From positions 768,887 through 832,886 of the forward strand of contig JADKIY010000001.1 of NCBI GenBank assembly GCA_016722575.1: a stretch of DNA of 64,000 nt. Direction: 5' to 3'. This document shows positions 2,959-56,647 of the stretch, piece by piece. The DNA is from Elusimicrobiota bacterium (GTDB lineage: Bacteria; Elusimicrobiota; Elusimicrobia; FEN-1173). A model generated the notes under the pieces. That model saw only the letters and a list, made by a program, of their open reading frames with translations, was not told where the DNA came from and searched no databases. The position numbers were made by a program, and so were the translations under genes. Within the stretch, counting starts at the first letter, position 1. Each line of letters starts with the position of its first letter.

Positions 2959-3861
2959 ATGAGAAAACTTTTTTTAGCGACGATCGGGATGGTCCTCGGG
3001 GTGGGAGGGGCCTTCGCCGGGGACGGAAGTTCGACGGCGGGGTTTTTAAACCTGCCCTCCTCGAGTCGGCTGGCGGGGTTGGGGGAAGCGGGGCTGGCGT
3101 TGGTCGACGGATCCCAAGGCCTTGGCGTGAACCCGGCGAGTTTGGGGCGGTTTAAGGGGCAGGGAGTGGGTTTGACCCACGGGATCTACGTGGACGAAAG
3201 CGCCCTGGAAGACCTGACCTACGCCCGGGCGACGAAGGCGGGGGCGTTCGGGGTGGGGGTTCGGTATTTTTCGGCGGGGAAGATCGACGAATTGGACACG
3301 ACGGGGGCGACGGTGGGGAGCTTTACGCCAAGCGACTTGGCCCTGACGGCGGGGTATGGCCGTGCGCTGAAGTATTTGAAAGTGGGCGGGGCCGTGAAAT
3401 ACATTCGGTCGAAGCTGGTGGACAGCGCGAGCACGATCACCCTGGACCTGGGGATCGAGTCCAGGCCCCTGCTGCAAAAGAAACTGCGGCTGGCGCTGGT
3501 GGGACAGAACCTCATTGGGAGTTTGAAGTATGAGACGGAGAAAAGCGACCTGCCGCGGATGATCCGCGCGGGCGGGACGTACAGCGTGAAGGACCCCTGG
3601 GACGTGGCGTTGGATTTTGGATTTCCCAAGGACGGGGACACCGAATGGTCCCTGGGGACGGAGTATCGATTAAGAATGGCCGAGCCCTGGGGCGTGGCCC
3701 TCCGGACCGGCTACAACAGCCGCCGTGCCGACGTGAGCGGGGGGGAAGGATTCGCCTTGGGTTTGGGCGTTAAACGGAACAAAATGACGGTGGACTACGC
3801 CTACGTGCCCTTCGGCGACATCGGATCGACCCATTGGATTACGATCGGGTGGGCCTGGTGA
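2959..3861 (+). CDS. PorV-like / UPF0164-type outer-membrane beta-barrel protein
   Basis: Signal peptide MRKLFLATIGMVLGVGGAFAG, then GFLNLPSSSRLAGLGEAGLALVDGSQGLGVNPASL, typical of the PorV/LptO family. Ends with aromatic-rich beta-strand pattern. Sits directly after a CTD-bearing cargo gene. An alternative ATG at 2926 is in frame. Confidence 0.5.
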   Translation: MRKLFLATIGMVLGVGGAFAGDGSSTAGFLNLPSSSRLAGLGEAGLALVDGSQGLGVNPASLGRFKGQGVGLTHGIYVDESALEDLTYARATKAGAFGVGVRYFSAGKIDELDTTGATVGSFTPSDLALTAGYGRALKYLKVGGAVKYIRSKLVDSASTITLDLGIESRPLLQKKLRLALVGQNLIGSLKYETEKSDLPRMIRAGGTYSVKDPWDVALDFGFPKDGDTEWSLGTEYRLRMAEPWGVALRTGYNSRRADVSGGEGFALGLGVKRNKMTVDYAYVPFGDIGSTHWITIGWAW

Positions 3862-18330: not shown

Positions 18331-18574
18331 GTCTGGGATTTTATCCCAGGCCAGCGGCCGTGAACCCCCCGCTATCGCTGTGGGTATCGTGCAAGGGGTA
18401 CGCGGGTTTTAAATTGGTGCCGGAGGGGGGACGACGCCAGAAACGGGCGTGGCGGCAGGGACTGGACTTTTAAGCCTGGAACACTGTTCCAGGCCGGCCG
18501 CTGTGAACCCCCACTTTCGCGGTGGGTTTCGTGCTGGAGGTACGCGGGTTTTAAATTGGTGCCGGAGGGGGGAC
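18331..18574. repeat. Two ~102-bp direct repeat copies (period 142 bp); the second runs into the tRNA-Leu 3' end, so the first carries a partial tRNA 3' end plus the same flank
   Basis: Copy A is 18331-18432 and copy B is 18473-18574, ~85% identical. Each starts with a short palindrome (ctgggattttatcccag / cctggaacactgttccagg). Both contain gtacgcgggttttaaattggtgccggaggggggac. Confidence 0.7.
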
Positions 18575-28700: not shown

Positions 28701-28805
28701 GGCTTCAATGTATTTTTGAACGGAAACAAGGAAATCGCGACCGGCTTCGGATTGAATGGCGGAAAGGATTTCCCGATCAACGGTGCGGTCGTCGATCATT
28801 CCCAA
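25629..28805 (-). CDS. Giant-locus ORF2: membrane protein with two near-identical copies of a ~170-aa His-rich four-TM module flanking a ~420-aa soluble region; CX5R(S) motif near the C-terminus
   Basis: 1058 aa from TTG 28805 or ATG 28799. Modules at aa ~85-257 and ~660-832 are ~95% identical. CSNNESRS (C-x5-R-S) maps to ~26150. The last ~60 aa are Arg/Pro-rich and look like an out-of-frame tail. Confidence 0.6.
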   Translation of the reverse strand: MGMIDDRTVDREILSAIQSEAGRDFLVSVQKYIEATGDAVADVLANDKVYNEWEQSLSYWQQLNKNVKRQLDAFLNESSATPPAATIPGLVPLIARVYGLDRNNPADLNRIVNEKAPLVESVATGLAFYAGVGILSALGSFFGVSIDHSFFAATGLFALVNVAFGFSHRSFYRYKPAEPGVDRLGRWELEPAPATRQTRWNLALRGMAIHAPLLLAFVDPFGGLFLAPLGALASVALHAVHNRAAARFGWTALTAGHAPARKGPGKGEDGTDPIRLKTPQDKYVPMRGWRYADVRMGELPRDKQGWKFHISLTPDDADRVLDAILPVLWDLNIPHKVADGLEMLEFLKDYETQAAKGITIYLHQSIAAQIYEKFRLNELKGKSVEPYEISAIFLGMLLEKRLADAGIGEVPGLEFHELGTGGDKRFSDRSHGRLGYRYGAFEGREVALPNGEIVPDERERYKHSEIKATLSADDIRDLMGPAIDKSLPSEPLRTELEGRLRATEPKPVTNNVRVFTPQDIQAWRARFQEITGRPMNNDDLKVIMARIAQRPEDSPLQLVTTFAHSVAPVSPGEQAVSEYLEYLRNHPDVQRKALKLIAAVTGATDPTPLATPEIIRRFVRSRPTVHKILLSTPPADWGGYHGVAINLVRAADFEQKPLAATIPGLVPLIAWVFNLDKNNPADLNRIVNEKAPLVESLATGVFFYASVGLMSALGSFFGVSIDHSFFAATGLFALVNVAFGFSHRSVYRYKPAESGVDRLGRWELEPAPATRQTRWNLALRGMAIHAPLLLAFMDPFGGLFLAPLGALASVALHAVHNRAAARFGWTALTAGHAPTAGPAAPKYIDAEGKAVLARAGAKLRASVEKLRRGGRLTEDDHVTGMFICSNNESRSAIAEILARKALFKFNSSLVPAAERDQFQSSINAILPRLEVTSPEGTVTTLTMRSGMKLDFPEDANKVLLGPGPRSPEDDSVLLRRPGSQRFWADAALPRRSPESQRIGRTPGSVYPARDDEIRREHPARPQTRLPDRLRRHQGPSAGRSSRRHGPRGAQGPGQKAWI
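26309..26828. repeat. ~520-bp direct repeat, copy 2 (encodes a four-TM His-rich module)
   Basis: Near-identical to 28034-28553; the six-frame side ORFs 26321-26539 and 28046-28264 translate almost identically. Copies are separated by 1725 bp. Confidence 0.8.
28034..28553. repeat. ~520-bp direct repeat, copy 1 (encodes a four-TM His-rich module)
   Basis: See 26309-26828. Confidence 0.8.
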
Positions 28806-31800
28806 GTTGCGAGGGGCGTTCTTTCAGGCCGGGGCCCTCCCAGTGGCGCGCAATATCAAACAAGGTTTTAACGGTTTGCCGGGCCAGGCCGGGATCCATC
28901 CGGCCATGGGCTTTGATCTCGTGGAGCGTTTGCCCCTCGACAAATTCTTCGACGTACCATTGGATCTGCTCTTTGCCGTCGGGCGTTTCAATGAAATCGG
29001 CAAGGCCGAAGCGGGGCGTTCCGTGGCCTCCGATGGATTTCAGGGCATCAAGCTCTCCACGTGCGGGTCTTGAAGGCACAGGTTTTCTTTGGGAATTACG
29101 GACATCTTTTCCTTCCGCGACATAGGCGATGTCGAATTGGTCGGTCAAGTCGGTGGACGAAAGGGGAACCTCCAGGATCCGGCGAATCAGCATGGCGGCC
29201 GTCCCCTTGTCGACTTTCGTCAGAATTTCGCCGGCGGTGGTGGATAGGTCCGCCAGGCGCCGAGCCGTATCGGCCGGTTTTTCTCCGGGTTGCGTGGCGT
29301 AACGTCCGGCGATGGCGAACCGTCTAAAAGCACCGGCGGAGGACGAGGCCGGCCCTCCCGCCGTCATCGCCCGCCAGCCGAAATGGGAGGCCAGTTCGTT
29401 GTGGACGATGTGCAGGACGACGGAGGTGGCGGCGCCCAGGATCGTCACGAGGGGGCCTAGAAGGGGGAAGAGGTTTGTCCAGAGCAGCGGGGAGTGAATG
29501 GCCATTCCGCGCACGGCCAAGCTGAGGCGGGTGCCCCAGGAGGCAAATTTCGGTGTGCCGTCGGGGTTCGACTCGACTTCCCATTGGCCGTCCCGGTAGG
29601 TGTACACCCGGGCGTGAAGGGCGCCGAAGGCGAGGTTCGCCAGGGCGAAGAGCGAGTATTGGTTGAAAATCGTCGGATTCAGGGAAACCGGGACTCCGAG
29701 GAAACCGGAGACGATGACGTCCAGGTTGGACATCAGCACCATGGCCCCGAAATAGAAAAGACCGAAAAGGGCGGATTCGACGAAGGGGGCTTTTTCCGTC
29801 ACGATCTTGTTCAGGTCTTCCGGGCTGTTGGGGTTCAGCCGGTAGAGGCGGGCGATCAGCGGGACGAGGCCGGGGATGGTCGCGGGCGGGCCGCGATCCC
29901 GGTGGACGTTGGGGGCCGCGCCGGTTTTTAGAATGGGGATTTCGCCCCGGCCGAACCGGACGGCTTGATTGTAGAGGGTCAAGGATTGGTAGGCCAACGA
30001 AAGCAGTTTGGTCGGATTGGTTTTGACCCCGAACATGGGGAAATGCGAATTCGCGTTGTGAACGGCGGCGTATTGGAACGGCCAATAAAGGTCCAAGAAG
30101 GCCTTTTCCCGGGTGTCAACGGCGTAAATATCCGAAAGTTCGGGTTGGGACAAGGACACGTGGTTCGACCGTCCCAGGAGAACGTCGACCTTGAACGGGG
30201 TCGATTCACGCCCCCGTTCCCTGGTGGCGAAATATTCAATGACGGATTTGACGAACAGCGCGGATTTCCCGGACCCGTAAGTGTCCACCACGACAAAGGA
30301 CCGAGTCATCGGCAAGCCGCTGGAGCGGAATTGGCGATAAATTTGATTCGCGTAGTCGGCGAAAAGCGCGTCGCCTTCGATGAGAGCCGCTGTTTTTTGC
30401 TTGAATTTTTCCTCGATCCCCTCCCGAACGGCCGCCGATTTAATGCCCAATTGATCGAAGGGGAATAGACCTTCGGCGACGATTTCCCTAAAACTCTCGT
30501 CCATGATGTTCTTGATGGATTTGATGATTTGCGACAATTCTTTGTCGTCGTTGCGGCGATTGGGGCCCACCGGCGTGAATATGCCCGGATGGTAAACCAC
30601 GGCGGCGGCCGACGTTTGGTCGTTCAGTTGGTCCGTGTAGCGACGGAATTCGTTAATGGACAAGGCGTCGCGGGCCAGGAAGATCGGCACCTGCCCCGTT
30701 TCCTGAAGGCGCGCCACGACGTACGGCGCGAAGGCGACATGACTGTCGACGGCTTCCTGGTCCCGGGTGACGACGTCCGGGGCCAGCAATTGCCGCAATT
30801 CTTCCCGGGCGTGCAGGAAGGAGTCCCGGTTGACCTGGTTCGACCCGCCCATGAGCATCAGCCAGCCGGAGAGAATTTGATTGATTTCGTTGTCGGTGAA
30901 GACCCGGGGGCGTCCTTCGGCGTCCTTGGGAAACTGGTCCGCGTCCAAGGCCCAAGGCAAAGCCGCCAAGTCTTTCAACTGGAAAAGGCGCTCCTTTCCA
31001 AAAAACCGCTGGTGGTTGGCGAACAAACTCTGGGCCACGGGATGGGGGGTGAGCACAATGATCTTGGTGGATTGGAAAAAGCTTTCAATGCTCCCGGCCT
31101 TCCACCAATTCCGCATTTCGGGTTGGCGAATCAAGGACGCGTCGTGGATGGGGATGTTCCCGGGGGCCCATTGTTCGCCCGGCGTTCCCCGGCCCCGCAC
31201 TTGAATGAGTTCCGTGCCCTCAAAGGCGCGGCCCAGACGTTTGACGACGTTGCGGATGGCGATGTCTTGTAGGTGGCGGGCCGGCGTGTCGCCCTGCTTG
31301 GTGTAGTCCCCGCCGCTGGCCACGTTGGACGGAGCGGTGTCGTAGACGTCGCGCGCCATTTTAACCAGGCGGTCCAGTTCGTCGGGATGGGACTTGAAAT
31401 ATTGATAGTAGCCTTCTTCGTAAAATTCGTAGGCCCTTGATTCGTCCACGATTTGGTCGTTAATGACGTGCTTGATGGACCAGCCGCTGGGGCCGAACCA
31501 TTCGTCCAGCCGCGCCCGAATCGCCGGGGCGTTGTAGCCGAAATATCCGGGGCGAAAGAAGTCCTCCTTGGCGTATTCTTGTAAGAAATCCGCCAAGGAC
31601 ATTTTGACCAGGCGCTTGGCGTTGCTGGGGGGGCCTTGGTCCCCGTTGGCCGCGGTGGCGGCCGTCCAGCCGAACCGGGCGGCCAATTGGTTGTGGACGA
31701 CATGGAAAGCGACGCTGGTCAGAGCCCCCAGGGGGGCCAGGAAGAGGCCGCCGAGGGGGTCCATGAAGGCCAACAAGAGGGGGGTGTGAATGGCCGCGCC

Positions 31801-34800
31801 CCGGAGAGCCAACGCCCAACGATCGCGGAGGGACGCGGGGGCCGGTTCGGCCTCCCAGCGGCCCGTTCGGGTGACGCCCGGGAGGGGCGGCTTAAAGCGA
31901 TAAACCGACCGGTGGGAAAAGCCGAAGGCCAGGTTGACCAGGGCGAAGAGGCCCGTGGCGGCAAAGAAGGCGTGGTCGATGTGAAAGCCCACCGCGGAAC
32001 CCAGGGCGCTCAGGAGTCCCACGGCGGCGTAGAAGAAGACCCCCGTAACGACGGTTTCGACGAGGGGGGCTTTTTCGTTGATAATGCGGTTCAAATCCGC
32101 CGGGTTGGCGGGATTGAGTCCGTAAAGCCGGCCAATCAGGGGAACCAACCCCGAAATCGTCGCCGCCGGAGGCCCCCGGGGCGCCCCGGTGGACGTGGGG
32201 GCCAAGGTCCCGTTGGCGGACTGTTCGTCCAAGAGGACGACGTCGTTGCCAACGATGGATAGAGAGAATTGGTTGCGGGAAATGCCGCTGGTCGGGCCGA
32301 CGCCCAGGTCCTCCCGGCCGAATTGAAGGGTTGCGCCGGTCCGTCGATGGCCGTTCGGGAGAAGCAGAGACAATCCCCCTTCGGGGGTCGACTCCAGCAC
32401 TAGGTGGACGCCATTGACGACGAGGGGCACGGGCAGATGTTTTCGGGGGATGTTGACGGCCCCCGCGTTTTGGGACGGGCCGCCCAGGAGTGCCGTTGCC
32501 CGGACGTTCCTCCAGGCGTCAACGAGGGCGGTCAGATACTCGGCGGAGAAGGCTTCGATTCGCCCCGGGGTTTGATTGCGTTGGAGGGAAGAGACGGTCT
32601 GCTCGAGGGCATACACCTCATCGGACAACGGTTCGTTGGCCAATGGCCGGCCGAGCGCCGCCAAGTGGTCGTTCAAACGAGTGTCCAAGTGAAGCCGGAC
32701 GGTCCGCATTTGGGCCAGGTCGTCTCCCAGCTCCAAGTTCCCGGAATCTCCCCGGCGCAGGGTCCCGGCGGCCGACACACGCTGCCCCGCTTCGTCCCGA
32801 ATATCCGAAAGGGTGTAGCGGGCCGATCTCCCGCCCTCCGAGGCTTCGATGTCCACGGCCACGGCAAAGGCGGCGGCGTTTTGGATGTCGCTTAGGACGA
32901 CCGCCCCGTCTTGGGGGACGACGCGAATTTTGTCGCCTTTAATGTAAACGTCCAGGGGGATCCGAAGGGCGCGGCCCTGGGCCAAGATTCCCAAATCCCC
33001 CCGGACCGAGGCCAGAAGGGTCGATTCCAATCGTTCCCGGCCGGAATTTCCCTCTTCAGCGGGGCTCACGTCCACCGTGGTGTTGTTGGGTGAAAAGTTT
33101 TCCACCGTGGCTTCGCTGCCCGACCAGGCCAGGGCGGCGTGTTTGCGGGAAACTTCCACGCCGCTCAACCGGAGCGTGCGTCCCTCGGCGGCGGTTTGGC
33201 GGCCCAGAGTCAAGGATTCCCCGGGTTGAAGGACTTCCCGGCCTTCGGGGCCGGTGGCGATCAATCGGTTTCCCTCGAGCGAGAGGGAAACGCGGTTTCC
33301 GCTCAACACCAGGACCGAGGGGAAAGTGCCCAGCCGGCGGGGCCCCGACGTTGGCGTGAGAATCGTGTTCCCCGTGATGGCGGGGACGACCGGCGCGACC
33401 GGGGTCTCGACGACGGGTTCCGCCGGCCGGGTGATCCGCAGGGCGTTGTTCAGGAAGAAGTCGGCCGTTCCCTGCCGTTCGTTGGTGACGCCGAAATCGA
33501 AGTAGGCTTCCGGGATGACGTTCCAGGTTTTTTTAACGGTCTCATTGTTGAATTCCGCCGCGCCGTCCCCCGGCTGAAAACGGGCGCGTCCCGCGGAGGC
33601 GGGGGCCAAAATCACGCCGGGGGTGAGGCGGGCGAGCTGTTCCCAGGCGGCCTTCCAAACGGGACTCAAATCGTAGCCCGAGGCGTTGTAGTCGCCGAAA
33701 ACGAGAACGCCCTGATCGGTCATCACCAGCACCACGTTGGCGATCATGGCCCCGGTGGCTTCGTCGTAGGCCATGGCGAAGGCGGAGTTGGATTCCAGGG
33801 CGTGGGCCACGGGCATTTCCTGGTGGCCGCCCCCGAAGGGATTGAAGCACCCCGGAACCCGGTGCCCGGCGGCCACTTCGTCCAGGAGGCTTTTCTGGAT
33901 TTTCACCGAGACCCGGGCCCGGGCGTCGTCTTTTAGTTTCTGCGTGGCCAAGAGGGACCGGAGGGCGATGAGGATTTCGTTGAAGTGGAGTTGAATTTGG
34001 AGGAACCGTTCCTCGGGGTTTTCCACGCCGTCCCGGGAGAGGCGGTCGATGGCCTCGTCCCGTTGGCCGAGGATCCGCTCGTTCACGAATTGTTCGGCGG
34101 CGGCGTAGGTGTCCAGGGCGTCGGCCGTTTGCGCGGCTTCGGCCGCCTTGACCAGTCCCAGGGATCGGGCGATCTGGACCAACTGTTCGGTTTGCCTCTG
34201 AACCTGGACAATCCGTTCCTGGGCCGACAGCGGGGCCACGTCCTGGGCCGGGACGACGATTCCCCGGTCCCACAACGCGGGGGAATAGCCCGCCGCCAGA
34301 AGCGCGGCCTTGGCCTCGCCGTTGCCGGGGATTTGGGCGAGGTTGTGCGCCGCGGCGGCGGCGTTCGCCGCCTCGGCCGTCCCACCGTTGCGGAGCGTCT
34401 CCAGCCAGGTCGTGACGGCCGACTTCAGCCGGTCCGCCAACCCCGCCGTTTCCCCGGTCGGGGCGCGCTCCGGCCGCAACGACGTGGTCAAGGACGTGGC
34501 CACGATCAGTTGCGTCAATTGCCGCTGGTCCAGCTTCTCCAAAATGGGAGCGTTTTCCTCGCCGAAAACCTCCAGAACCGCCTGCCGCTCGGCGGCGGCG
34601 ACGACCGCCTCGACCGTCCTAGCCAGATTTTTCGGTCGGAGCGACCCGCCGGCGAAAGCGGCCGCCAAGGCGCGCATGGCTTCCAGGGAAGGTTCGAGTT
34701 TTTCCCGGGAATTGGCTTCCGCGTGAAGTTTAAGAAGCAGACTCCAACGGTAAAAGGTTTCGATCAAACGGTAATAGTCGATGGCCGGGTCGGTGCGTCG

Positions 34801-37800
34801 AAGGAATTCGAAAAACGGATCCCTTTCGCTCCAATAGGGAAGGCCCGCCAGGGCCTCGTCCAACAGTCCCACGCTGGGAACGCGGTTTTTCTCCGCCAGG
34901 AACATCAATAAATCCAGGGAAGCCGCGGGGCCGATGTGGCGGGAAAGGGCCCCGTCCACGTGATTGATGAGATGACCCTCTTCCGGCACGCTCCATCGCT
35001 CGGCGATTCCCCGAAGCCGCTCGGCCAGGGCCGCCATGCGCTCGGGGCGGGCCGTTGAGCTTCCGGTGTTCCGTGCCGTCGTGGCCAGGGCCCGGGCGGC
35101 AAAACCCATGAAGGATCCCTCGCTGGAGCGGATTTTTCTCGGATCGACTCGGACGCCGAGGGTTCCCAGCAAAGCGATTTCCTCCGGGGACAGGGCGCCA
35201 AGGTGTTTCAGGTCGTCGCTGGGAATGTTCAGGGCCCGCAAGGTTTTGGTCCGCTCGAAGGCCTGGACGAAGGCCGGGGCCTGGGCCAGGGGGCCTTTGA
35301 GCGGGCGATCCCGGGTGTCCTCCCAGGGGCTGAACGCCGATTCCAGGGCTCTTTCCACTTCGCTCGACAAATTGAAGCGCGCGCTCTGACCGGCCACGGC
35401 CAAATCCGCCAACAAGGGTTTTTGAAGATCCGGGTAGACCAACCCGAGCAGCAACAGGCCCACCGCGGCCTTTTCCTCCGTTTGGTATCGGGAGGGTTTA
35501 TCCCCTTCAAAGAGCAGTTCGGAAAGACCGGTAAAAAATTCCAGAGGCGCCGTTTCACTTTCGCGGCCCACGGGGGATCGGGCCAGCAATTCCAGGAAGT
35601 GGACCTTGGTGAGGCCGAAAATCATGCCCTCGTTTTCCCGTACAAATTGCGATTTGAGAACCCGCTCGATGGCCGCCGCGCTTTCCCCGGGGTCGGGGGA
35701 GGACAGCAGTCGGTTGCCGAGGGTGTTTTGAATCGTTTGTGATTTTGTCTGATCGAAAACCTCCCCCAGGAGGAAGGAGATTTTCCAGAGAGTCTGGGCG
35801 TCCGGTCCCTCGGTCAACAATTTGGGGGAGTCCGCCACGCGCTGGAAATAGAGTTGACGGAATTCCCGGTGGAGGCGTTGTAGGTCGGCGGGGGCGGACA
35901 GAAGAGCCTGGGTGGCGGCGCCGAAATCGGCCCCCTCTTTAACCAGAACGTGTCCCGCGAGGGCGATCATGGCCCGCTCGGACCGGTCGTAGGCGTCCAT
36001 GCGGTCGAAAAATTCACCGAGTCGAACCAGCGCCTCCGGATTGGATATCGCGTGGTGGACGATCCTCTCGGCCATGACCTCCCCGGGGACGGGCACGTCT
36101 TGGGTGGAAGTTCCCGCGCCTTGGCGGGCCATGTTCAGAAGCCGGTTCAAGGCCAGGGCCAGTTCGGGCTTTTCGTTCAGCCGTTGGTCGGGGGCCAGAA
36201 GGCGATCGAGTCCGGCGAGGGCCGTGGGCGAGGTGAATTTTCCGTACCTTCGGAGATTGGACAGGCCGGCCAGGTGGTCTTCCGTTGATCCCGTCAAAAA
36301 GGCGCCACCGCCGCGGCGTTGGGCCCAGTTGACCCCCGCGTGGCCCAAAACGCCTACCGCAAAGCCCCCGACGACGGGACCGAGAACGGAAGACGAGACC
36401 CCCGCCAGTTCTTGCAAACCTTGAAGGGGCGCGGCCCAGAAATGGGATGTTCCGAGGGAAAGAAGCGTGTTTCCCAATTCCCGAACGAGGAGGGGAAGGT
36501 TTTGAATGATTTCGGTTGGGCCGAAGGCGGCAAAGGAGGGGACAAAGGCGCCTGTCAAAAAGACCGTGACGGCCAAGGACGCGACTCCGAAAGCCGTGAA
36601 CAGGGAAAAGATGCCAAGTCGATCGAGGGGGGTGGCTTCGCGTTGTTGAAGAGCTCCGTCTTTCCCGTAGTAGTAGACCTGTTTGTGCGTTGCCAACGTG
36701 ATTTTGGCCGCGACGACCAAGGCGGCGGTCAGGGACCAAGCGGGAGAACCCGCCAGGAGAAGAATGGGGTAAACGTACAGGAGAAACCGGGCGTTCTCGC
36801 CGAAGGGGGCGGACCATAAAACCGTGCGGGCGGGATCGGTGCGCATCGATCCGGCGTAGTTCCCGGAGAAAAGCGGCCGACGCGCCAAGTCGCTCAAAGC
36901 GGAGCGGGCGCGGACCACGACCGATTCGGTCAGAGCGCCGGGGAGGGCCGCCGCACGGGCGAATAAGCCCGACATTCGGGAGGCCAAACCGCCGACCAAA
37001 GCGCCGAAGGCGGCCACGACCGATCCCGTTCTCCGAACCATGTCCACGGCGTGGCCGTTGCCCAGATCGACGTGGCGGTCGGCGGCCCCGTGGACGTTGT
37101 CGCAGGGCTCCAGGGCCTCGGCGGCCGATACGGATACCGCGCGGACGCCGTTTTGCAGGACTTCCTGGGCGCCGTGAATAAACCGGGGGGTTTCGCCCGT
37201 CGCGTCGGCCAGGGCGATGGGGTGGGAAAGATAAATGCGGTCGCCGGCGACCAATTTTTCCAGGGGAACGGGGTCGTGGGCCAGGATGTCCAGGTAATCG
37301 CTCTCGCCGGGGACGTCCGTGATTTTAGGCGTGACCACGACGTAGGAAATTTGTTTTTGCCGGAGAAGGCCGGTCAATCCCTCGGTGTGGAAGCCGCCGG
37401 CCACGAGCACGCCGGTGGTGGTGCCTTTTTCGGCCATTTTAGCCAGGAGGTTGGCCACCAGGGCGTCGTTTCGACGGACGGCGTAGGAGCAGAAATCCTC
37501 AAAGGGCTTGAGCGTTTCAACCGTCAGGGACGGGAGCCGGGCCACCGTCGGATCCAGGGCCGCCAGGCGGTCCCGAAGGGCCAGAATCTCGGGCCGGCGC
37601 TTTTCGTAGGCCACCCAGTCGGGCATGGCCATTTCGTGCCGGAGCATTTTTTCCAACAGGGCCAGGTCCCGGGCGATGTTCATTAAGGCGGTTTCGGCGG
37701 GGGTTTTGGCCAGGGAATTTTGGGCGGCGATTTCCAACTGGTCCAGTTCGGCCACGAGCTCGTTGCGGCTGATCTTCTCCGCCAGCAGGACGTAGGTGAT

Positions 37801-39099
37801 GTAGCTGGAGAGTTGGCCGAAATCGTCCAGGCGAATTTTGTTGTCGGCGCAGACCTGGCGCAGGTGGCGGTGGTAGTCGCCGTAGCCCATCCGGCCCGTG
37901 CGGTAATCGATGCTTCGGGCCACCAAGTCCTGGAGGGCCGGTTTCGACAGGCGGCGGACCAAAACTTCCACCAGGCGTTGGCGCTCGGTTTCCACGGCCT
38001 TGAAATCGAGGTTTTCCTCCCAATCCAGGGCGTTCAGCATCAGGCGGACGTTGGGAATGTCCAGGCGCCCGTCCCGGCCGCCGGGGGTTTTGACCAGGGC
38101 CCGGACGTAGTCGCCCAACTTTTCCCGCTGGGCCTTGTAGGCTTCAAAATGCCGGTCGAAGTTCTTGAGGCCTTCGGAGAAGGTTTTTTTCTTTTCCTGG
38201 TCGGCGACGGCCCGCAGGGTGGCCAGGGTGGCGAGGAGGGTGGTTTTGGTCTTGAAAGCGGTTTTGAGGGCTTTGACGTTCCCTTCGTAGAGGGCCGAGT
38301 CTTCCGCGCCGTAGAAGGCCGGGGCCTGGGGCAGGGTGAGTCCGGCGTACTCGGGCCCCGCGATCAGGCCTTTAATCAAAAGGAAATCGGCGATGTCTTT
38401 GGTGATGGACGAATCGGGGTAGGTGCGGTAGGGGTCCAGGGTGAAGGAGCCCGAGGCGCCTTCCAGTCCCACCAGGTTGACCCGGCGTTCCTGCATGAGC
38501 GCCCCGAGCATGGCGGAGATGTTTCGCTGGGCTTCCTCGATGCCGTGGGCGTCTTGGATGTGAACGACCACCGGGGCGTTGGCTTTGGGGGAGAGGTAGA
38601 CGTCCCGCACCCAGCCGTAGGGCGTGACCAGCTTGCCCAGCCAGTCCTGGGGGGCCGTTTTGGTGGGGGGGATCTTGGCCAATTCTCCGGGGGTGGAGGA
38701 AATGGCGGATCCGCCGGCCGAGCCCAGGTCCATCCGGACCGCCTGGGGGATTTGGGACAAGAGCATGTTGCCCTCTTGCCCCAGGTCGATCCCCTCGGAT
38801 TCCGGCGGCTGCATTTTGCGCGCCGCGACCCGACGAGCGCTCCAAAAGTTTTGCTCCTGGGCGTAGACGCCGAGGACGTTGCAGAAAAAGAAGGAGGCCG
38901 CCAAGGCGCCGCCCAGGGCGGACCGAAGGCCCGCCGAAGGTCGGAGGAGCCGTCGCTCCTTTGGAGCGCCGACTGTCCCCGGAGCTCCGCGAAGGGGGCG
39001 GAGGAGCCGTCGCTCCTTTGGAGCGCCGACTGTCCCCGGAGCTCCGCGAAGGGGGCGGAGGGACGGGAGAAAGCGAAGTAAGGCTTTGGTTTTCGTCAT
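28777..39099 (-). CDS. Giant-locus ORF1: 3440-aa multidomain membrane protein (signal/TM, possible TraB/GumN-like domain, TM block, long helical regions, 2x FHA, 2x four-TM His-rich module)
   Basis: Uninterrupted 10.3-kb frame with protein-like composition throughout. FHA signatures are LTLGRQ...VSRKHAALAWSG...NFSPNNTTVD and LQFGRED...ISRNQFSLS...LLDEQSANGT. Modules ATI[PS]GLVPLI...IDH[SA]FF...FGFSHRS...H.VHN are at ~31645-32165 and ~29350-29910. VHIQDAHG and VLVAGGFHTEGL resemble TraB/GumN family motifs (weak). Confidence 0.7.
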   Translation of the reverse strand: MTKTKALLRFLPSLRPLRGAPGTVGAPKERRLLRPLRGAPGTVGAPKERRLLRPSAGLRSALGGALAASFFFCNVLGVYAQEQNFWSARRVAARKMQPPESEGIDLGQEGNMLLSQIPQAVRMDLGSAGGSAISSTPGELAKIPPTKTAPQDWLGKLVTPYGWVRDVYLSPKANAPVVVHIQDAHGIEEAQRNISAMLGALMQERRVNLVGLEGASGSFTLDPYRTYPDSSITKDIADFLLIKGLIAGPEYAGLTLPQAPAFYGAEDSALYEGNVKALKTAFKTKTTLLATLATLRAVADQEKKKTFSEGLKNFDRHFEAYKAQREKLGDYVRALVKTPGGRDGRLDIPNVRLMLNALDWEENLDFKAVETERQRLVEVLVRRLSKPALQDLVARSIDYRTGRMGYGDYHRHLRQVCADNKIRLDDFGQLSSYITYVLLAEKISRNELVAELDQLEIAAQNSLAKTPAETALMNIARDLALLEKMLRHEMAMPDWVAYEKRRPEILALRDRLAALDPTVARLPSLTVETLKPFEDFCSYAVRRNDALVANLLAKMAEKGTTTGVLVAGGFHTEGLTGLLRQKQISYVVVTPKITDVPGESDYLDILAHDPVPLEKLVAGDRIYLSHPIALADATGETPRFIHGAQEVLQNGVRAVSVSAAEALEPCDNVHGAADRHVDLGNGHAVDMVRRTGSVVAAFGALVGGLASRMSGLFARAAALPGALTESVVVRARSALSDLARRPLFSGNYAGSMRTDPARTVLWSAPFGENARFLLYVYPILLLAGSPAWSLTAALVVAAKITLATHKQVYYYGKDGALQQREATPLDRLGIFSLFTAFGVASLAVTVFLTGAFVPSFAAFGPTEIIQNLPLLVRELGNTLLSLGTSHFWAAPLQGLQELAGVSSSVLGPVVGGFAVGVLGHAGVNWAQRRGGGAFLTGSTEDHLAGLSNLRRYGKFTSPTALAGLDRLLAPDQRLNEKPELALALNRLLNMARQGAGTSTQDVPVPGEVMAERIVHHAISNPEALVRLGEFFDRMDAYDRSERAMIALAGHVLVKEGADFGAATQALLSAPADLQRLHREFRQLYFQRVADSPKLLTEGPDAQTLWKISFLLGEVFDQTKSQTIQNTLGNRLLSSPDPGESAAAIERVLKSQFVRENEGMIFGLTKVHFLELLARSPVGRESETAPLEFFTGLSELLFEGDKPSRYQTEEKAAVGLLLLGLVYPDLQKPLLADLAVAGQSARFNLSSEVERALESAFSPWEDTRDRPLKGPLAQAPAFVQAFERTKTLRALNIPSDDLKHLGALSPEEIALLGTLGVRVDPRKIRSSEGSFMGFAARALATTARNTGSSTARPERMAALAERLRGIAERWSVPEEGHLINHVDGALSRHIGPAASLDLLMFLAEKNRVPSVGLLDEALAGLPYWSERDPFFEFLRRTDPAIDYYRLIETFYRWSLLLKLHAEANSREKLEPSLEAMRALAAAFAGGSLRPKNLARTVEAVVAAAERQAVLEVFGEENAPILEKLDQRQLTQLIVATSLTTSLRPERAPTGETAGLADRLKSAVTTWLETLRNGGTAEAANAAAAAHNLAQIPGNGEAKAALLAAGYSPALWDRGIVVPAQDVAPLSAQERIVQVQRQTEQLVQIARSLGLVKAAEAAQTADALDTYAAAEQFVNERILGQRDEAIDRLSRDGVENPEERFLQIQLHFNEILIALRSLLATQKLKDDARARVSVKIQKSLLDEVAAGHRVPGCFNPFGGGHQEMPVAHALESNSAFAMAYDEATGAMIANVVLVMTDQGVLVFGDYNASGYDLSPVWKAAWEQLARLTPGVILAPASAGRARFQPGDGAAEFNNETVKKTWNVIPEAYFDFGVTNERQGTADFFLNNALRITRPAEPVVETPVAPVVPAITGNTILTPTSGPRRLGTFPSVLVLSGNRVSLSLEGNRLIATGPEGREVLQPGESLTLGRQTAAEGRTLRLSGVEVSRKHAALAWSGSEATVENFSPNNTTVDVSPAEEGNSGRERLESTLLASVRGDLGILAQGRALRIPLDVYIKGDKIRVVPQDGAVVLSDIQNAAAFAVAVDIEASEGGRSARYTLSDIRDEAGQRVSAAGTLRRGDSGNLELGDDLAQMRTVRLHLDTRLNDHLAALGRPLANEPLSDEVYALEQTVSSLQRNQTPGRIEAFSAEYLTALVDAWRNVRATALLGGPSQNAGAVNIPRKHLPVPLVVNGVHLVLESTPEGGLSLLLPNGHRRTGATLQFGREDLGVGPTSGISRNQFSLSIVGNDVVLLDEQSANGTLAPTSTGAPRGPPAATISGLVPLIGRLYGLNPANPADLNRIINEKAPLVETVVTGVFFYAAVGLLSALGSAVGFHIDHAFFAATGLFALVNLAFGFSHRSVYRFKPPLPGVTRTGRWEAEPAPASLRDRWALALRGAAIHTPLLLAFMDPLGGLFLAPLGALTSVAFHVVHNQLAARFGWTAATAANGDQGPPSNAKRLVKMSLADFLQEYAKEDFFRPGYFGYNAPAIRARLDEWFGPSGWSIKHVINDQIVDESRAYEFYEEGYYQYFKSHPDELDRLVKMARDVYDTAPSNVASGGDYTKQGDTPARHLQDIAIRNVVKRLGRAFEGTELIQVRGRGTPGEQWAPGNIPIHDASLIRQPEMRNWWKAGSIESFFQSTKIIVLTPHPVAQSLFANHQRFFGKERLFQLKDLAALPWALDADQFPKDAEGRPRVFTDNEINQILSGWLMLMGGSNQVNRDSFLHAREELRQLLAPDVVTRDQEAVDSHVAFAPYVVARLQETGQVPIFLARDALSINEFRRYTDQLNDQTSAAAVVYHPGIFTPVGPNRRNDDKELSQIIKSIKNIMDESFREIVAEGLFPFDQLGIKSAAVREGIEEKFKQKTAALIEGDALFADYANQIYRQFRSSGLPMTRSFVVVDTYGSGKSALFVKSVIEYFATRERGRESTPFKVDVLLGRSNHVSLSQPELSDIYAVDTREKAFLDLYWPFQYAAVHNANSHFPMFGVKTNPTKLLSLAYQSLTLYNQAVRFGRGEIPILKTGAAPNVHRDRGPPATIPGLVPLIARLYRLNPNSPEDLNKIVTEKAPFVESALFGLFYFGAMVLMSNLDVIVSGFLGVPVSLNPTIFNQYSLFALANLAFGALHARVYTYRDGQWEVESNPDGTPKFASWGTRLSLAVRGMAIHSPLLWTNLFPLLGPLVTILGAATSVVLHIVHNELASHFGWRAMTAGGPASSSAGAFRRFAIAGRYATQPGEKPADTARRLADLSTTAGEILTKVDKGTAAMLIRRILEVPLSSTDLTDQFDIAYVAEGKDVRNSQRKPVPSRPARGELDALKSIGGHGTPRFGLADFIETPDGKEQIQWYVEEFVEGQTLHEIKAHGRMDPGLARQTVKTLFDIARHWEGPGLKERPSQLGNDRRPHR
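32180..32420 (-). other. FHA domain 2 within giant ORF1
   Basis: ...LQFGREDLGVGPTSGISRNQFSLSIVGNDVVLLDEQSANGTLAP carries the G-R...S-R/H...N-G-T FHA signature. Confidence 0.6.
33060..33330 (-). other. FHA domain 1 within giant ORF1
   Basis: ...LTLGRQTAAEGRTLRLSGVEVSRKHAALAWSGSEATVENFSPNNTTVD carries the same FHA signature. Confidence 0.6.
38944..39057. repeat. 57-bp in-frame tandem duplication near the 5' end of giant ORF1
   Basis: gaggagccgtcgctcctttggagcgccgactgtccccggagctccgcgaagggggcg x2, with a partial copy upstream. Encodes LRPLRGAPGTVGAPKERRL x2, just before the predicted signal/TM segment. Confidence 0.8.
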
Positions 39100-52933: not shown

Positions 52934-53151
52934 CGACGGAATTTTATCATTTTGGACCGCCGATCGAAGGCCCCGGCGGGAAGGGAGGGACGGCGACGTT
53001 GTCCCGGATCAACGGCGGTTTCCCCTTGCCGTCACTCCATTTTCCCTTTACTCTTTAGGAACGCCCCCGGAGCGATTCCCGGGGCCGGGGTTATAAAAAT
53101 AGGATCGGTCTGTAATCGTTTTTTTCCGGAGATCGATGATAGAATCCCCCC

Positions 53152-53733
53152 ATGAAGAAAAGGCCCAACGAAGGGACAAGTTCTTACGAAATGCTTCGCC
53201 GAGCTCTTTCGGGATTGGGGATAAAAAGAGTCGCCCGGGAGTTGAGAATTTCCGCGGCCCTCCTGTATAAATGGTGCCAACCGCCGCGCGCCAACGCCGA
53301 GGGGTTGGAGGGGAGCGGGGCCTTGAACCCCCTGGACCGTCTGGATCAAATCATCGGGTTGACCCGCGACGACGAATTGCTGGCGTGGTTGTGCCAACGG
53401 TCCGACGGGTTTTTTGTGACGAACCCCTCCCCGCCGAAGCGGGAGCAATCCCTGGAATTGATGACGGAGATTCAACGTCTGGTCAAGGAATTCTCCGATA
53501 CCCTGGACGCCATATCCCGGTCCTGCCTGGAGGACAAGGAAATCGACGGAACGGAAGCCCGCCGGATTCGCCGGGAATGGGAGCCGCTCAAGCGGGTCGG
53601 GGAAAGCTTTGTGCGGTCTTGCGAATCCGGACGATATTTTAAAAACGGGAAACGGAAGAACGTGAAAAGACCGGGATCCGTCGAGTCCGGGGGGCCCGGC
53701 CGGAAACAAAGCGGTGGCCCGGGGCGGACATAG
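53152..53733 (+). CDS. Putative HTH DNA-binding protein
   Basis: GIKRVARELRISAALLYKWCQ looks like a helix-turn-helix. Basic C-terminal tail. Confidence 0.45.
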   Translation: MKKRPNEGTSSYEMLRRALSGLGIKRVARELRISAALLYKWCQPPRANAEGLEGSGALNPLDRLDQIIGLTRDDELLAWLCQRSDGFFVTNPSPPKREQSLELMTEIQRLVKEFSDTLDAISRSCLEDKEIDGTEARRIRREWEPLKRVGESFVRSCESGRYFKNGKRKNVKRPGSVESGGPGRKQSGGPGRT

Positions 53734-53743
53734 GAGGCGTGCG

Positions 53744-53953
53744 ATGTTTCTGAGAGCCGCGGAATGGGTGGGGTCGGTGTTGATCGTCTGTGTTTTCGCC
53801 ACGCAGATCTTTTTGCCCCTGGTCCGGGGCACGCCGTTCTTTCCCTTTTTTAGGCGAGAGAGATCCCTGGAAGGGGCGTTGAAGGACGCCCGGCAGGAAG
53901 CGGCGGAAAAGCGCGTGGAATCGGAAATCGAAAAAATCAAGAAAGATCGGTAA
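53744..53953 (+). CDS. Small single-TM membrane protein
   Basis: ATG 53744 with AGGAGG 7 nt upstream. MFLRAAEWVGSVLIVCVFATQIFL... Immediately precedes the SPFH gene. Confidence 0.45.
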   Translation: MFLRAAEWVGSVLIVCVFATQIFLPLVRGTPFFPFFRRERSLEGALKDARQEAAEKRVESEIEKIKKDR

Positions 53954-53967
53954 AAGGAGAAATCGAA

Positions 53968-55146
53968 ATGGACGGTGTGACCAATGTGCGTCGGGTGGCG
54001 TTCGGCCTGGTGGCCTCGGCGGTGATGGTGTTCTGTTTGGCCTTTGCGGGGAAATTGTTTCAAAACGTCGATGCCGATGAGATCGTTTGCATCCAGAGCC
54101 CGGTGTCCGGCAAATTGAACTGGCACACCACGGCGGGCGTGAAATGGCAGGGGTTCGGCAAGGTGACGAAATATTTCAAATTGGACACCTACGAGTTCAA
54201 AGTTCCGGTCCGGTTCAACGACGGCGGTCACGGCACCATCGTCGGATCCTTGAACTACGAAGTGCCCTTGACGCCGGAACAGCTGACCCAAATTCACATG
54301 AAATACGGCAGCCAGGAAGCCATACAGAAGCAATTGGTGGAGACCGTCACCAACAAATGCGTCTACATGACCGGTCCGTTGATGTCTTCCAAGGAATCCT
54401 ACGCGGAAAAACGGACAAGCCTGATCCTTTATATTGAAGACCAAATACAAAACGGCGTGTATAAAACAACCCAGAAGGACGTCAAAACGCGGGATCCCAT
54501 CACCGGCTCCGAAAAAACCGTGGCCGTGGTGGAGATCGTCAAAGACGAAAACGGCCGTCCCGCCCGCCAGGAGGACGCGGTGCTGAGCGGTTACGGCATC
54601 AACACCTCCAACTTCGCCGTGACGAAGCTCGATTACGAAGACGCCGTTGAAAAACAAATTCAACAACAACAGGAATTGACGATGAAGGTGCAAACCGCGG
54701 TGGCCTCTTCGAAAGAAGCCGAACAGCGGGCCATCACCGTGGCGAAAGAAGGCGAAGCCAACGCCGCCGCGGCCAAGTGGGCCCAGGAGGTTGAAAAGGC
54801 CAAGGCCGTCACCCTCGCTCAGCAACAATACGAAGTGGCCACCCTGGAGGCCAAGGCGGCGGAACAAAAGAAACGGGCCGAAATTCTTTTGGGAGAAGGC
54901 GAATCGACGCGCAAGCGCCTGGTCATGCAGGCCGACGGCGCCCTGGAGAAAAAATTGCAGGCCTATGTCGAAACCCAAAAATATTGGGCCGACGCCATGG
55001 CCCGGATGACCCAGCCCGTGGTCCCCGGCGTTTCCATGGGAGGCGCGGACGGGAAGGGCGGCAATGGGGTCACCCAAATGATGGAGATCATGGCCGCCAA
55101 GGCGGCGCGTGATTTGCAATTGGACCTCAAAGCCTCCAAGCCTTAA
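53968..55146 (+). CDS. SPFH/band-7 (prohibitin/flotillin-like) domain protein
   Basis: N-terminal anchor, SPFH-like beta/alpha core, then a long Ala/Glu/Lys/Gln-rich coiled coil. Confidence 0.75.
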   Translation: MDGVTNVRRVAFGLVASAVMVFCLAFAGKLFQNVDADEIVCIQSPVSGKLNWHTTAGVKWQGFGKVTKYFKLDTYEFKVPVRFNDGGHGTIVGSLNYEVPLTPEQLTQIHMKYGSQEAIQKQLVETVTNKCVYMTGPLMSSKESYAEKRTSLILYIEDQIQNGVYKTTQKDVKTRDPITGSEKTVAVVEIVKDENGRPARQEDAVLSGYGINTSNFAVTKLDYEDAVEKQIQQQQELTMKVQTAVASSKEAEQRAITVAKEGEANAAAAKWAQEVEKAKAVTLAQQQYEVATLEAKAAEQKKRAEILLGEGESTRKRLVMQADGALEKKLQAYVETQKYWADAMARMTQPVVPGVSMGGADGKGGNGVTQMMEIMAAKAARDLQLDLKASKP

Positions 55147-55215
55147 GACGTTCGGCGGGCCGCGGGGCGATCGAAAAAATCCCCCCTCCGGGCCTTTGGT
55201 TTCCGTCGTTTTTCG

Positions 55216-55255
55216 CCCCGCTCCCCGGCCGATGCCGGGGAGCGGGGTTTTTATT
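55216..55255 (+). terminator. Rho-independent terminator after the SPFH gene
   Basis: CCCCGCTCCCCGGC-cgat-GCCGGGGAGCGGGG followed by TTTTTATT. Confidence 0.6.
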
Positions 55256-55298
55256 GGTCCGCCCGGACGCCCGTCTCTTTTCCGCCATGGCCGGGGGG

Positions 55299-55328
55299 TT
55301 GACCTTTTTACCATACAAATGTATGGTA
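55299..55328 (+). promoter_or_regulatory. lexA promoter (TTGACC ... TATGGT) with an overlapping perfect 20-bp palindrome TACCATACA-AA-TGTATGGTA; candidate SOS box
   Basis: Palindrome at 55309-55328, 9 nt upstream of the lexA ATG; TTGACC at 55299-55304. Confidence 0.5.
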
Positions 55329-55336
55329 TCCCGGCC

Positions 55337-55936
55337 ATGAACGGTTTAACCCCTCCCCAGAAGAAAATTTTCGATTTCATCGTCCACCAGGTTCACGAGA
55401 TCGGCGTGCCGCCCACGGTGCGGGAAATCGCCCGGCGTTTTGATGTCGCCATCGGCACCGTCCAGGGCCATTTGGCGGCCCTGGATCGGAAGGGGGCTGT
55501 TCGGCGGATGCGGGACCGGGCCCGGGGCTTGGCCCTGGCGGTCAAGCGGGATTGGGCGGGGGGGGTCCGCTTGCCGGTCTTGGGACGGGTGCCGGCGGGG
55601 CTTCCCGTTGAAGCCGTGGCCCTCGCGGACGAGCATTTCCCCGTGCCCGGGGAGATCGCCCAGGGCGCCAATTTTATTTTGCGGGCCAAGGGGGACAGCA
55701 TGTCCCCCAAAATCGAGGACGGCGATTTGTTGCTGGTCCGGCTTCAGGAAGAGGCCCTGGAGGGCGATATTGTGATCGCCTACGTGGGGGACGAGGGCGA
55801 AGCCACGGTCAAACGGTTCCGTCGAAAGGGGACACGCGTCTTTCTTCAGGCCGACAACGCCAAATACGCCCCCATTCTCAAACCTTTTAAAGTGGCCGGT
55901 CGGGTGACGGGATTGATACGAACGGGGTTGAGGTGA
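55337..55936 (+). CDS. lexA: LexA repressor
   Basis: N-terminal wHTH (PTVREIARRFDVAIGTVQGHLAALDRKG). Cleavage site AG in VKRDWAGG-like region. S24 peptidase GDSM...KRF motifs (Ser/Lys dyad). Confidence 0.9.
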   Translation: MNGLTPPQKKIFDFIVHQVHEIGVPPTVREIARRFDVAIGTVQGHLAALDRKGAVRRMRDRARGLALAVKRDWAGGVRLPVLGRVPAGLPVEAVALADEHFPVPGEIAQGANFILRAKGDSMSPKIEDGDLLLVRLQEEALEGDIVIAYVGDEGEATVKRFRRKGTRVFLQADNAKYAPILKPFKVAGRVTGLIRTGLR

Positions 55937-55939
55937 ACG

Positions 55940-56647
55940 ATGAGTTGGCTTCGCGATCAGATTCGGCAGGCGGCGGGGGCGGTGGAGGACGCGGGGGGCA
56001 CCGTCCGGTTTTTCCGGCGGGCCATCGACGAACGGTTGGCGGAACTGCCGCTCACCGAGTGGGAAACGCTCTTTTGGACCCGGGGACTGAAACGCGGGTT
56101 GATCCAACTCAACAGCCACTGGTTCCGGCTCGGCTCGGGACGGCAAACTTCCTTTAGTTTCTTCGTCCGGAACGAGGCCGGCCTGCTGGTGGGCCTTCGT
56201 CGGGAGTCGGTGACCCAGGCGGCGGTGTACGTGGCCCTGGTCACCCATTACGGTTATCCCCGGGCCCGGGTGCGGTTCGAAATCGATTTCCTGGACGTGG
56301 CCCTGCGGGACGAATCCGGCGACGTGTCGCTCTACGCCGAAACCAAAGCCTCGGACCGGGTGCTGGAGCGCCTGGTCAACGAATTGTCCGCCTCATTCGC
56401 CGAGGGCCTCCCCCGGCTGGAACTTCCCGAAGGCAAACCGCCGCCGGACGCTCACCAAAAAGCCGCCCATATTTTGCGAACCCGCCCCTTGTTCTTTTGG
56501 GCCGTGTCGCCGGGGCGTCGGTTGGCCTATTCGGTCCACTTCCTGGGCGACGGCTTCCGCCTGAGTCCCCGCTCGGACATCCCCTTCCACCGGGACGTGG
56601 ATTTGTTTTCCGGTCTTTCCCCGCAACCTTTGCCCGCGGCGGTCTGA
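55940..56647 (+). CDS. Hypothetical protein immediately downstream of lexA
   Basis: 235-aa ORF starting 4 nt after the lexA stop. No recognisable motif. Confidence 0.45.
   Translation: MSWLRDQIRQAAGAVEDAGGTVRFFRRAIDERLAELPLTEWETLFWTRGLKRGLIQLNSHWFRLGSGRQTSFSFFVRNEAGLLVGLRRESVTQAAVYVALVTHYGYPRARVRFEIDFLDVALRDESGDVSLYAETKASDRVLERLVNELSASFAEGLPRLELPEGKPPPDAHQKAAHILRTRPLFFWAVSPGRRLAYSVHFLGDGFRLSPRSDIPFHRDVDLFSGLSPQPLPAAV

Follow-up and report, generated by a model that had tools for sequence, protein, structure and literature searches.

LexA is the textbook case of motif drift in a regulator: the DNA sequence that it recognises changes from phylum to phylum, and each new LexA motif helps to show how recognition changes. 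Here we describe a candidate LexA operator, a perfect palindrome at the lexA promoter, together with the unnamed gene behind lexA (an open reading frame of 235 amino acids, ORF235), in a 64,000-nucleotide stretch of an Elusimicrobiota bacterium genome, hereafter the window (GenBank assembly GCA_016722575.1, contig JADKIY010000001.1, positions 768,887 to 832,886). The LexA box of Firmicutes and Actinobacteria, known as the Cheo box, reads GAAC-N4-GTTC and has variants in Cyanobacteria and Chloroflexi, while the Verrucomicrobia motif is TGTTC-N4-GAACA; such phylum-level variants were defined by comparing the promoters of lexA, recA and imuA (PMC4951493). The Balneolaeota motif is a direct repeat (PMC7739468), and the Bacteroidetes motifs are GGA-N5-TCC and CTAA-N5-TTAG (PMC8565304). 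As to the genes that LexA controls, in an O. terrae operon the gene behind lexA shares its operator and has a box of its own elsewhere, as in cassettes of the lexA-imuA-imuB-dnaE2 type (PMC4951493), and BapE of Caulobacter crescentus is an SOS-regulated endonuclease under LexA control (PMC4211646).

The palindrome in the window is very probably the LexA operator of an Elusimicrobiota lineage and, judged from its sequence, is a lineage-specific variant of the N4-spaced LexA dyad with ATAC/GTAT half-sites. An earlier reading of the locus, made from the sequence only, had set the palindrome apart from the Gram-positive consensus. This holds for the outer two bases of each half-site, which are ATAC/GTAT in Elusimicrobiota and not GAAC/GTTC, and for the conserved flanks ACY...RGT, whereas the palindromic dyad with its 4-nucleotide spacing, the ACA-NN-TGT centre, the overlap with the lexA core promoter and a canonical LexA, here the presumed binder, are all as in the Cheo box. 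The recognition helix of that LexA differs as well, reading (V/I)Q(D/G)HL where Cheo-box LexA proteins have VH(A/K)HL. The Verrucomicrobia, cyanobacterial and Chloroflexi motifs are precedents for phylum variants of an N4 dyad, but their half-site sequences differ from those of the predicted Elusimicrobiota box. As full-text literature searches returned no LexA motif for Elusimicrobia and no LexA box of the form ATAC-N4-GTAT, the variant is apparently undescribed.

ORF235 resembles BapE in being an endonuclease-like gene under predicted LexA control; the ORF235 family appears to be a separate one and has no Pfam model. Like the second gene of the lexA-imuA-imuB-dnaE2 cassettes it shares the operator when it stands behind lexA and carries its own box when it stands elsewhere, but unlike the members of these mutagenesis cassettes it is not similar to ImuA, nor is it similar to SulA. 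In contrast to type I HsdR (Pfam HSDR_N and HSDR_N_2), it is a stand-alone protein of 235 amino acids without helicase motor, methyltransferase or specificity partner, and neither the HSDR_N nor the HSDR_N_2 model matches the protein of the window.

A perfect palindrome overlaps the lexA promoter

The features of the locus, in window coordinates, are as follows.

55215-55248, + strand: intrinsic terminator of the upstream SPFH gene, a 15-pair stem (13 G-C pairs) followed by TTTTATT.
55299-55304, + strand: -35 hexamer TTGACC of the lexA promoter, from a consensus promoter scan.
55309-55328, no strand: candidate LexA operator (SOS box), TACCATACA-AA-TGTATGGTA, a perfect inverted repeat conserved at the lexA and ORF235 promoters of relatives.
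55322-55327, + strand: -10 hexamer TATGGT within the right arm of the operator, from the same scan.
55337-55936, + strand: lexA, 199 amino acids, ATG at 55337 and stop at 55934-55936, with Pfam and NCBIfam matches.
55930-55935, + strand: Shine-Dalgarno-like GAGGTG of ORF235, read from the sequence, overlapping the lexA stop codon.
55940-56647, + strand: ORF235, a protein of PD-(D/E)xK (HsdR-N-like) nuclease fold with predicted co-transcription with lexA, ATG at 55940, stop ending at 56647.

The full palindrome, TACCATACAAATGTATGGTA, has 9-nucleotide arms that are 100% complementary around a 2-nucleotide centre, and its conserved core, ATAC-N4-GTAT, occupies 55313-55324. As the sequence-only reading had placed it, it lies between the TTGACC -35 (55299-55304) and the lexA ATG (55337). 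The promoter found by the consensus scan consists of TTGACC, a 17-nucleotide spacer and TATGGT, and since TATGGT maps to 55322-55327, the right arm contains the -10; the operator extends over the distal part of the spacer and the entire -10. A strong terminator ends the upstream SPFH gene and therefore lexA has its own promoter. TTGAC stands at the identical distance from the box in seven related loci (L006, L009, L011, L005, L015, L107 and L109; L numbers denote the related loci that we retrieved).

The protein encoded behind this promoter is a genuine LexA by its sequence, with the canonical N-terminal winged-helix and C-terminal S24 peptidase domains (LexA_DNA_bind PF01726, 1e-18; Peptidase_S24 PF00717, 4e-26) and a score of 165 bits against NCBIfam TIGR00498, the cut-off of which is 111. 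The cleavage site A87-G88, S121 (in GDSM) and K159 are invariant in an alignment of 20 relatives, and the nearest named relatives come from Elusimicrobiota metagenome-assembled genomes.

In the window the -10 hexamer ends 9 nucleotides ahead of the lexA ATG, and because it ends so close to the start codon the lexA mRNA would have nearly no leader. The -10 ends 6-9 nucleotides before the ATG in the window (55327-55339), L009 (5990-6003) and L011 (5990-6003), with no Shine-Dalgarno sequence visible, and a lexA mRNA with little or no leader is probable in several lineages. In L006 (6001) and L107 (1328), proteins P0001 and P0003, gene callers place the LexA start at an ATG inside the operator (aATGTATGGTAT...), and the false N-terminal extensions MYGMPA and MYGISM of LexA in database entries stem from starts called there.

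The -35 hexamer of the window has seemingly been replaced relative to L006. Where L006 reads cgccTTGACAgggggACCATAC, the window (55283-55310) reads cgccATGGCCggggg-GTTGACCTTTTT-ACCATAC: the old -35 is mutated and a 12-nucleotide insert brings the new TTGACC, leaving the distance to the box unchanged. Compared with the syntenic L006, the window also has an insertion of about 2.3 kb (52956-55280) between a 311-amino-acid gene and lexA, which holds a phage CII-like helix-turn-helix gene (53152-53733; Pfam Phage_CP76, phrog_101), the SPFH/Band_7 gene (53968-55146; phrog_11908) and its terminator.

The box is conserved at related lexA promoters

The box recurs at the lexA promoters of relatives whose LexA is between 37% and 92% identical to that of the window.

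L006 and L014, LexA 92% identical: box ACCATACAAATGTATGGT.
L107, LexA 72% identical: box ACCATACAAATGTATGGT.
L109, LexA 61% identical: box ACCATACATTTGTATGGT.
L009, LexA 58% identical: box TCCATACGGGTGTATGGT.
L011, LexA 50% identical: box ACTATTCTTTTGTATAGT.
L026, LexA 44% identical: box TCTATACCCATGTATAGT.
L024, LexA 42% identical: box ACCATACATATGTATGGT.
L054, LexA 37% identical: box ACCAGACAAATGTATGGT.

Across loci the consensus is ACYATAC-N4-GTATRGT. The half-sites ATAC and GTAT are present in all distinct boxes (13/13), the arms differ by lineage (ACCATAC/GTATGGT or ACTATAC/GTATAGT), and the spacer is free to vary (AAAT, ATTT, GGGT, ATAT, CCAT) while ATAC/GTAT remain constant. This conservation supports the proposal of the sequence-only reading that the palindrome is the SOS operator of the lineage. 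The box takes two registers relative to the -35. In the first, that of the window, six bases separate TTGAC from the box, the right arm of which is the -10; in the second (L024, L026, L054 and L103) the box comes directly after TTGACA and fills the 17-nucleotide spacer, with a separate -10 downstream. Since there are two registers, conservation of the -10 alone cannot account for the box.

We made a weight matrix from the 13 related boxes and scanned with it the upstream regions of all retrieved lexA loci, in which the outgroup and control set consisted mostly of distant LexA proteins among the matches listed from a metagenome search based on the LexA alignment. A box scoring 16.8 bits or more, at most 65 nucleotides from the start codon, was found in 11 of the 14 distinct loci whose LexA has a (V/I)Q(D/G)HL recognition helix; two of the others score 11-12 bits and one is without a box. 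Among the matches listed, none of the roughly 50 lexA loci with a VH(A/K)HL helix scores above 11 bits, and the majority of them carry CGAACA-NN-TGTTCG, which at these outgroup promoters occupies a place equivalent to that of the new box. The presence of the box thus appears to follow the type of LexA recognition helix, the change of the outer bases going with the change of the helix.

Further dyads with N4 or similar spacing are seen at lexA or LexA-like promoters (L071, L076, L078; L048, L066, L084; L022; L104). They pair with other helices, ACCACACAAATGTGTGGT with GTVRDYL, AGTGTTCATATGTGCACT with FGVKRHL and TTACAAATGTAA with GGLQKQI, and CCGTAAGTCCTTACGG is found ahead of a LexA-like gene whose surroundings (Mrr_cat, DUF5131, SocA_Panacea) look mobile or defence-like.

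The box stands out within the window by its sequence

The exact palindrome is present once in the 64-kb window and matched in none of 100 shuffles. Palindromes of its size, in contrast, are not rare here (seven loci in the window have perfect 9-nucleotide arms, against about 3.6 matches in Markov shuffles), so that size alone says little and the significance of the palindrome rests on its conservation across genomes. With the matrix the lexA site scores 31 bits and the next-best site in the window 7.6 bits, and no second strong site was found across the 64 kb. In the retrieved sequence (about 570 kb) strong matches are confined to the promoters of lexA, of ORF235 homologues and of similar targets. 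Viral contigs gave 42 box matches, nearly all in AT-rich contigs and with neither LexA nor ORF235 nearby, which we judged to be chance or unrelated hairpins.

The box at other genes

ORF235 homologues that are 67-74% identical and have no adjacent lexA (L001-4, L005, L015 and L106) each have the box at their promoter, and in L005 the upstream neighbours, an AsmA-like gene and two small genes, are the same as at the lexA-ORF235 locus of L006. In L011 lexA is directly followed by a gene of 202 amino acids, the homologue of which in L102 (E-value 2e-14) stands alone, with a perfect TCTATACAAATGTATAGT 7 nucleotides before its start. These RecA-fold proteins resemble Rad51/RadA weakly, and although the match is weak, the RecA-fold gene of these sister lineages is a better candidate for an ImuA analogue than ORF235. 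In L103, TTGACA-GGTATACATTTGTATAC-TATAAT lies ahead of an operon of ORF6N, a small gene, lexA, DUF6504 and a Y-family polymerase that clears one NCBIfam cut-off for DNA polymerase IV. The recurrence before other damage genes that the sequence-only reading had called for is therefore seen across related genomes only, at stand-alone ORF235 homologues, the RecA-fold gene and the lexA-dinB operon. A tblastn search of all retrieved loci with an approximate E. coli RecA query found no recA.

In L102 (4577-10594) one strand carries in a row the box, the RecA-fold gene (183 amino acids), an 86-amino-acid DUF8156 gene, an intein-containing family-B DNA polymerase (953 amino acids) and lexA, an arrangement that could represent an SOS cassette centred on PolB.

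ORF235 is a predicted PD-(D/E)xK nuclease-fold protein coupled to lexA

The ORF235 ATG lies four bases past the last base of the lexA stop codon, and a scan for promoters and terminators between the two genes found neither. The lexA-ORF235 operon is kept where LexA is 61-92% identical. Coupling and conserved operon together support the expectation of the sequence-only reading that the two genes, 4 nucleotides apart, are likely co-regulated.

The family is rare and patchy. Only 30 close homologues were found, all of them unnamed and all from Elusimicrobiota; a full profile search gave 187 clusters among 1.84 billion representatives, and no more than 8 loci came from scanning genomes with the ORF235 alignment. 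The sequence of ORF235 matches nothing in Pfam, NCBIfam, PADLOC, PHROGs or the sequences of the Protein Data Bank (PDB), yet the sequence-only reading's view that it holds no recognisable motif did not survive structure prediction and conservation analysis. The AlphaFold2 model (predicted local distance difference test 91, predicted template modelling score 0.86) shows an alpha-beta-beta-beta-alpha-beta PD-(D/E)xK core, its elements being helix 88-103, strands 111-113, 120-123 and 129-135 and helix 139-152, together with an uncharacterised N-terminal three-helix region. The catalytic signature consists of E89 in helix 1, D119 at strand 2 and E134-T-K136 in strand 3. Among 60 relatives (20-74% identity) D119 never changes, and conservation reaches 90% or more at E89, E134 and K136. 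Among distant relatives, 15/60 match Pfam HSDR_N_2 with scores under the curated threshold, the best E-value being 6e-5. The closest folds are the nuclease domains of the restriction enzymes HsdR, BpuSI, DrdV and BsaXI, and Foldseek against the PDB and viral structures gave nothing significant beyond BsaXI. The suggestion that ORF235 might be an imuA- or sulA-like effector had to be given up, as it has no Pfam or NCBIfam match to such proteins and its predicted fold is PD-(D/E)xK rather than RecA- or SulA-like. Fold and signature suggest that ORF235 is an SOS-controlled endonuclease-like protein.

In L105 (10001-11240) an ORF235 homologue (61% identical), without a box, overlaps by 8 nucleotides the downstream gene tag for 3-methyladenine DNA glycosylase I (Adenine_glyco), which links the family to DNA repair. 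When compared, the genes that follow lexA in L011 and in L009 turned out not to be ORF235 homologues; ORF235 and the RecA-fold gene of L011 are without similarity.

A model of SOS control and its alternatives

Based on these data we propose, with good confidence, that lexA and ORF235 form a two-gene SOS operon under a LexA-bound ACCATAC-N4-GTATGGT dyad and that its second product is an SOS-induced PD-(D/E)xK endonuclease-like protein. A LexA dimer would bind the dyad, and as the dyad extends over the later half of the promoter spacer and all of the -10, bound LexA would keep RNA polymerase off the promoter. Upon DNA damage, LexA, stimulated by RecA, would cleave itself at Ala87-Gly88 with its Ser121/Lys159 dyad. 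This would clear the promoter and allow joint expression of lexA and ORF235, which are translationally coupled. ORF235, a presumed metal-dependent endonuclease-like relative of the HsdR N-terminal domain, would be made only on SOS induction and would most likely cut or process damaged DNA or DNA at stalled forks. Two observations weigh against this proposal: a dinB-like gene near the ORF235 homologue in L001 has no box, and the ORF235 homologues of 43-63% identity have none either and are located behind unrelated genes.

It is conceivable, though we consider it unlikely, that ORF235 is SOS-controlled as proposed and yet acts as a toxin or a defence nuclease, destroying the chromosome or the DNA of incoming or induced phages in an apoptosis-like or abortive response. 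The restriction-enzyme nuclease domains that are its closest folds, the rare and patchy distribution of the family and the precedent of BapE as an SOS-regulated endonuclease in Caulobacter (PMC4211646) would agree with such a role, whereas the lack of a PADLOC match for ORF235, the coupling of one homologue to the repair glycosylase gene tag, and the loci examined, at which no methyltransferase, immunity gene or defence island was seen, speak against it.

That the palindrome is bound by a regulator other than LexA, for example by ORF235 through its N-terminal helical domain or by an unlinked factor, its position at lexA then reflecting co-regulation, is improbable. Such a regulator would fit the boxes ahead of ORF235 where lexA is not adjacent and the three-helix region of ORF235, and the binding of LexA is itself a prediction; but the box is also found at lexA promoters with no ORF235 nearby (L009, L011, L024, L026, L054 and L103), its presence tracks the type of LexA recognition helix, and in geometry and position it corresponds to the canonical LexA box that outgroups have at their lexA promoters. 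Least of all do we expect the palindrome to lack operator function, whether as promoter sequence with a -10 that happens to be symmetrical or as a palindrome arisen by chance. It is true that the right arm holds TATGGT and that shuffled sequence yields 9-nucleotide-arm palindromes about as often as the window does. Yet both arms are maintained over a range of LexA identity from 37% to 92%, the box in four lineages lies wholly within the spacer and is followed by a separate -10, and the matrix separates it (31 bits) from the next window site (7.6 bits).

Returning to LexA as the binder, a wider proposal, which to us could equally well hold or fail, is that Elusimicrobiota and related uncultured lineages with a (V/I)QDHL helix use an undescribed operator, ACYATAC-N4-GTATRGT, to control a small and fluid regulon of genes that enter and leave the lexA operon. 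These would include a hitherto unrecognised family of stand-alone HsdR-N-like PD-(D/E)xK endonucleases as a new SOS effector, either damage-processing or chromosome-degrading. The change of the half-site from GAAC to ATAC pairs with a one-position change from His to Gln in the helix, a link that is testable by mutagenesis. For a phylum that is known almost entirely through metagenomes, the motif also makes its SOS regulon predictable. The ORF235 family is a candidate SOS effector without database annotation, and since its catalytic residues are clear, a nuclease assay and a deletion phenotype could assign its function.

Other observations

Elsewhere in the window (18474-18494) a perfect palindrome, GCCTGGAACA-C-TGTTCCAGGC, resembles GAAC-N3-GTTC; it sits between an ABC ATPase gene and a row of AP_endonuc_2, RadC, VanZ and UPF0047 genes, with RmuC further on, and its spacing differs from that of a LexA box, so that it is probably a hairpin. 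A phage-like contig of 62% GC (L146) has at 3500-3710, beside a thymidylate synthase gene, an AT-rich island of about 200 bp dense in TATACATTTGTATA-like repeats, which could be an origin or an operator array. The - strand of the window holds a single open reading frame of 3440 amino acids (28777-39099) with coding-like GC content at third codon positions.
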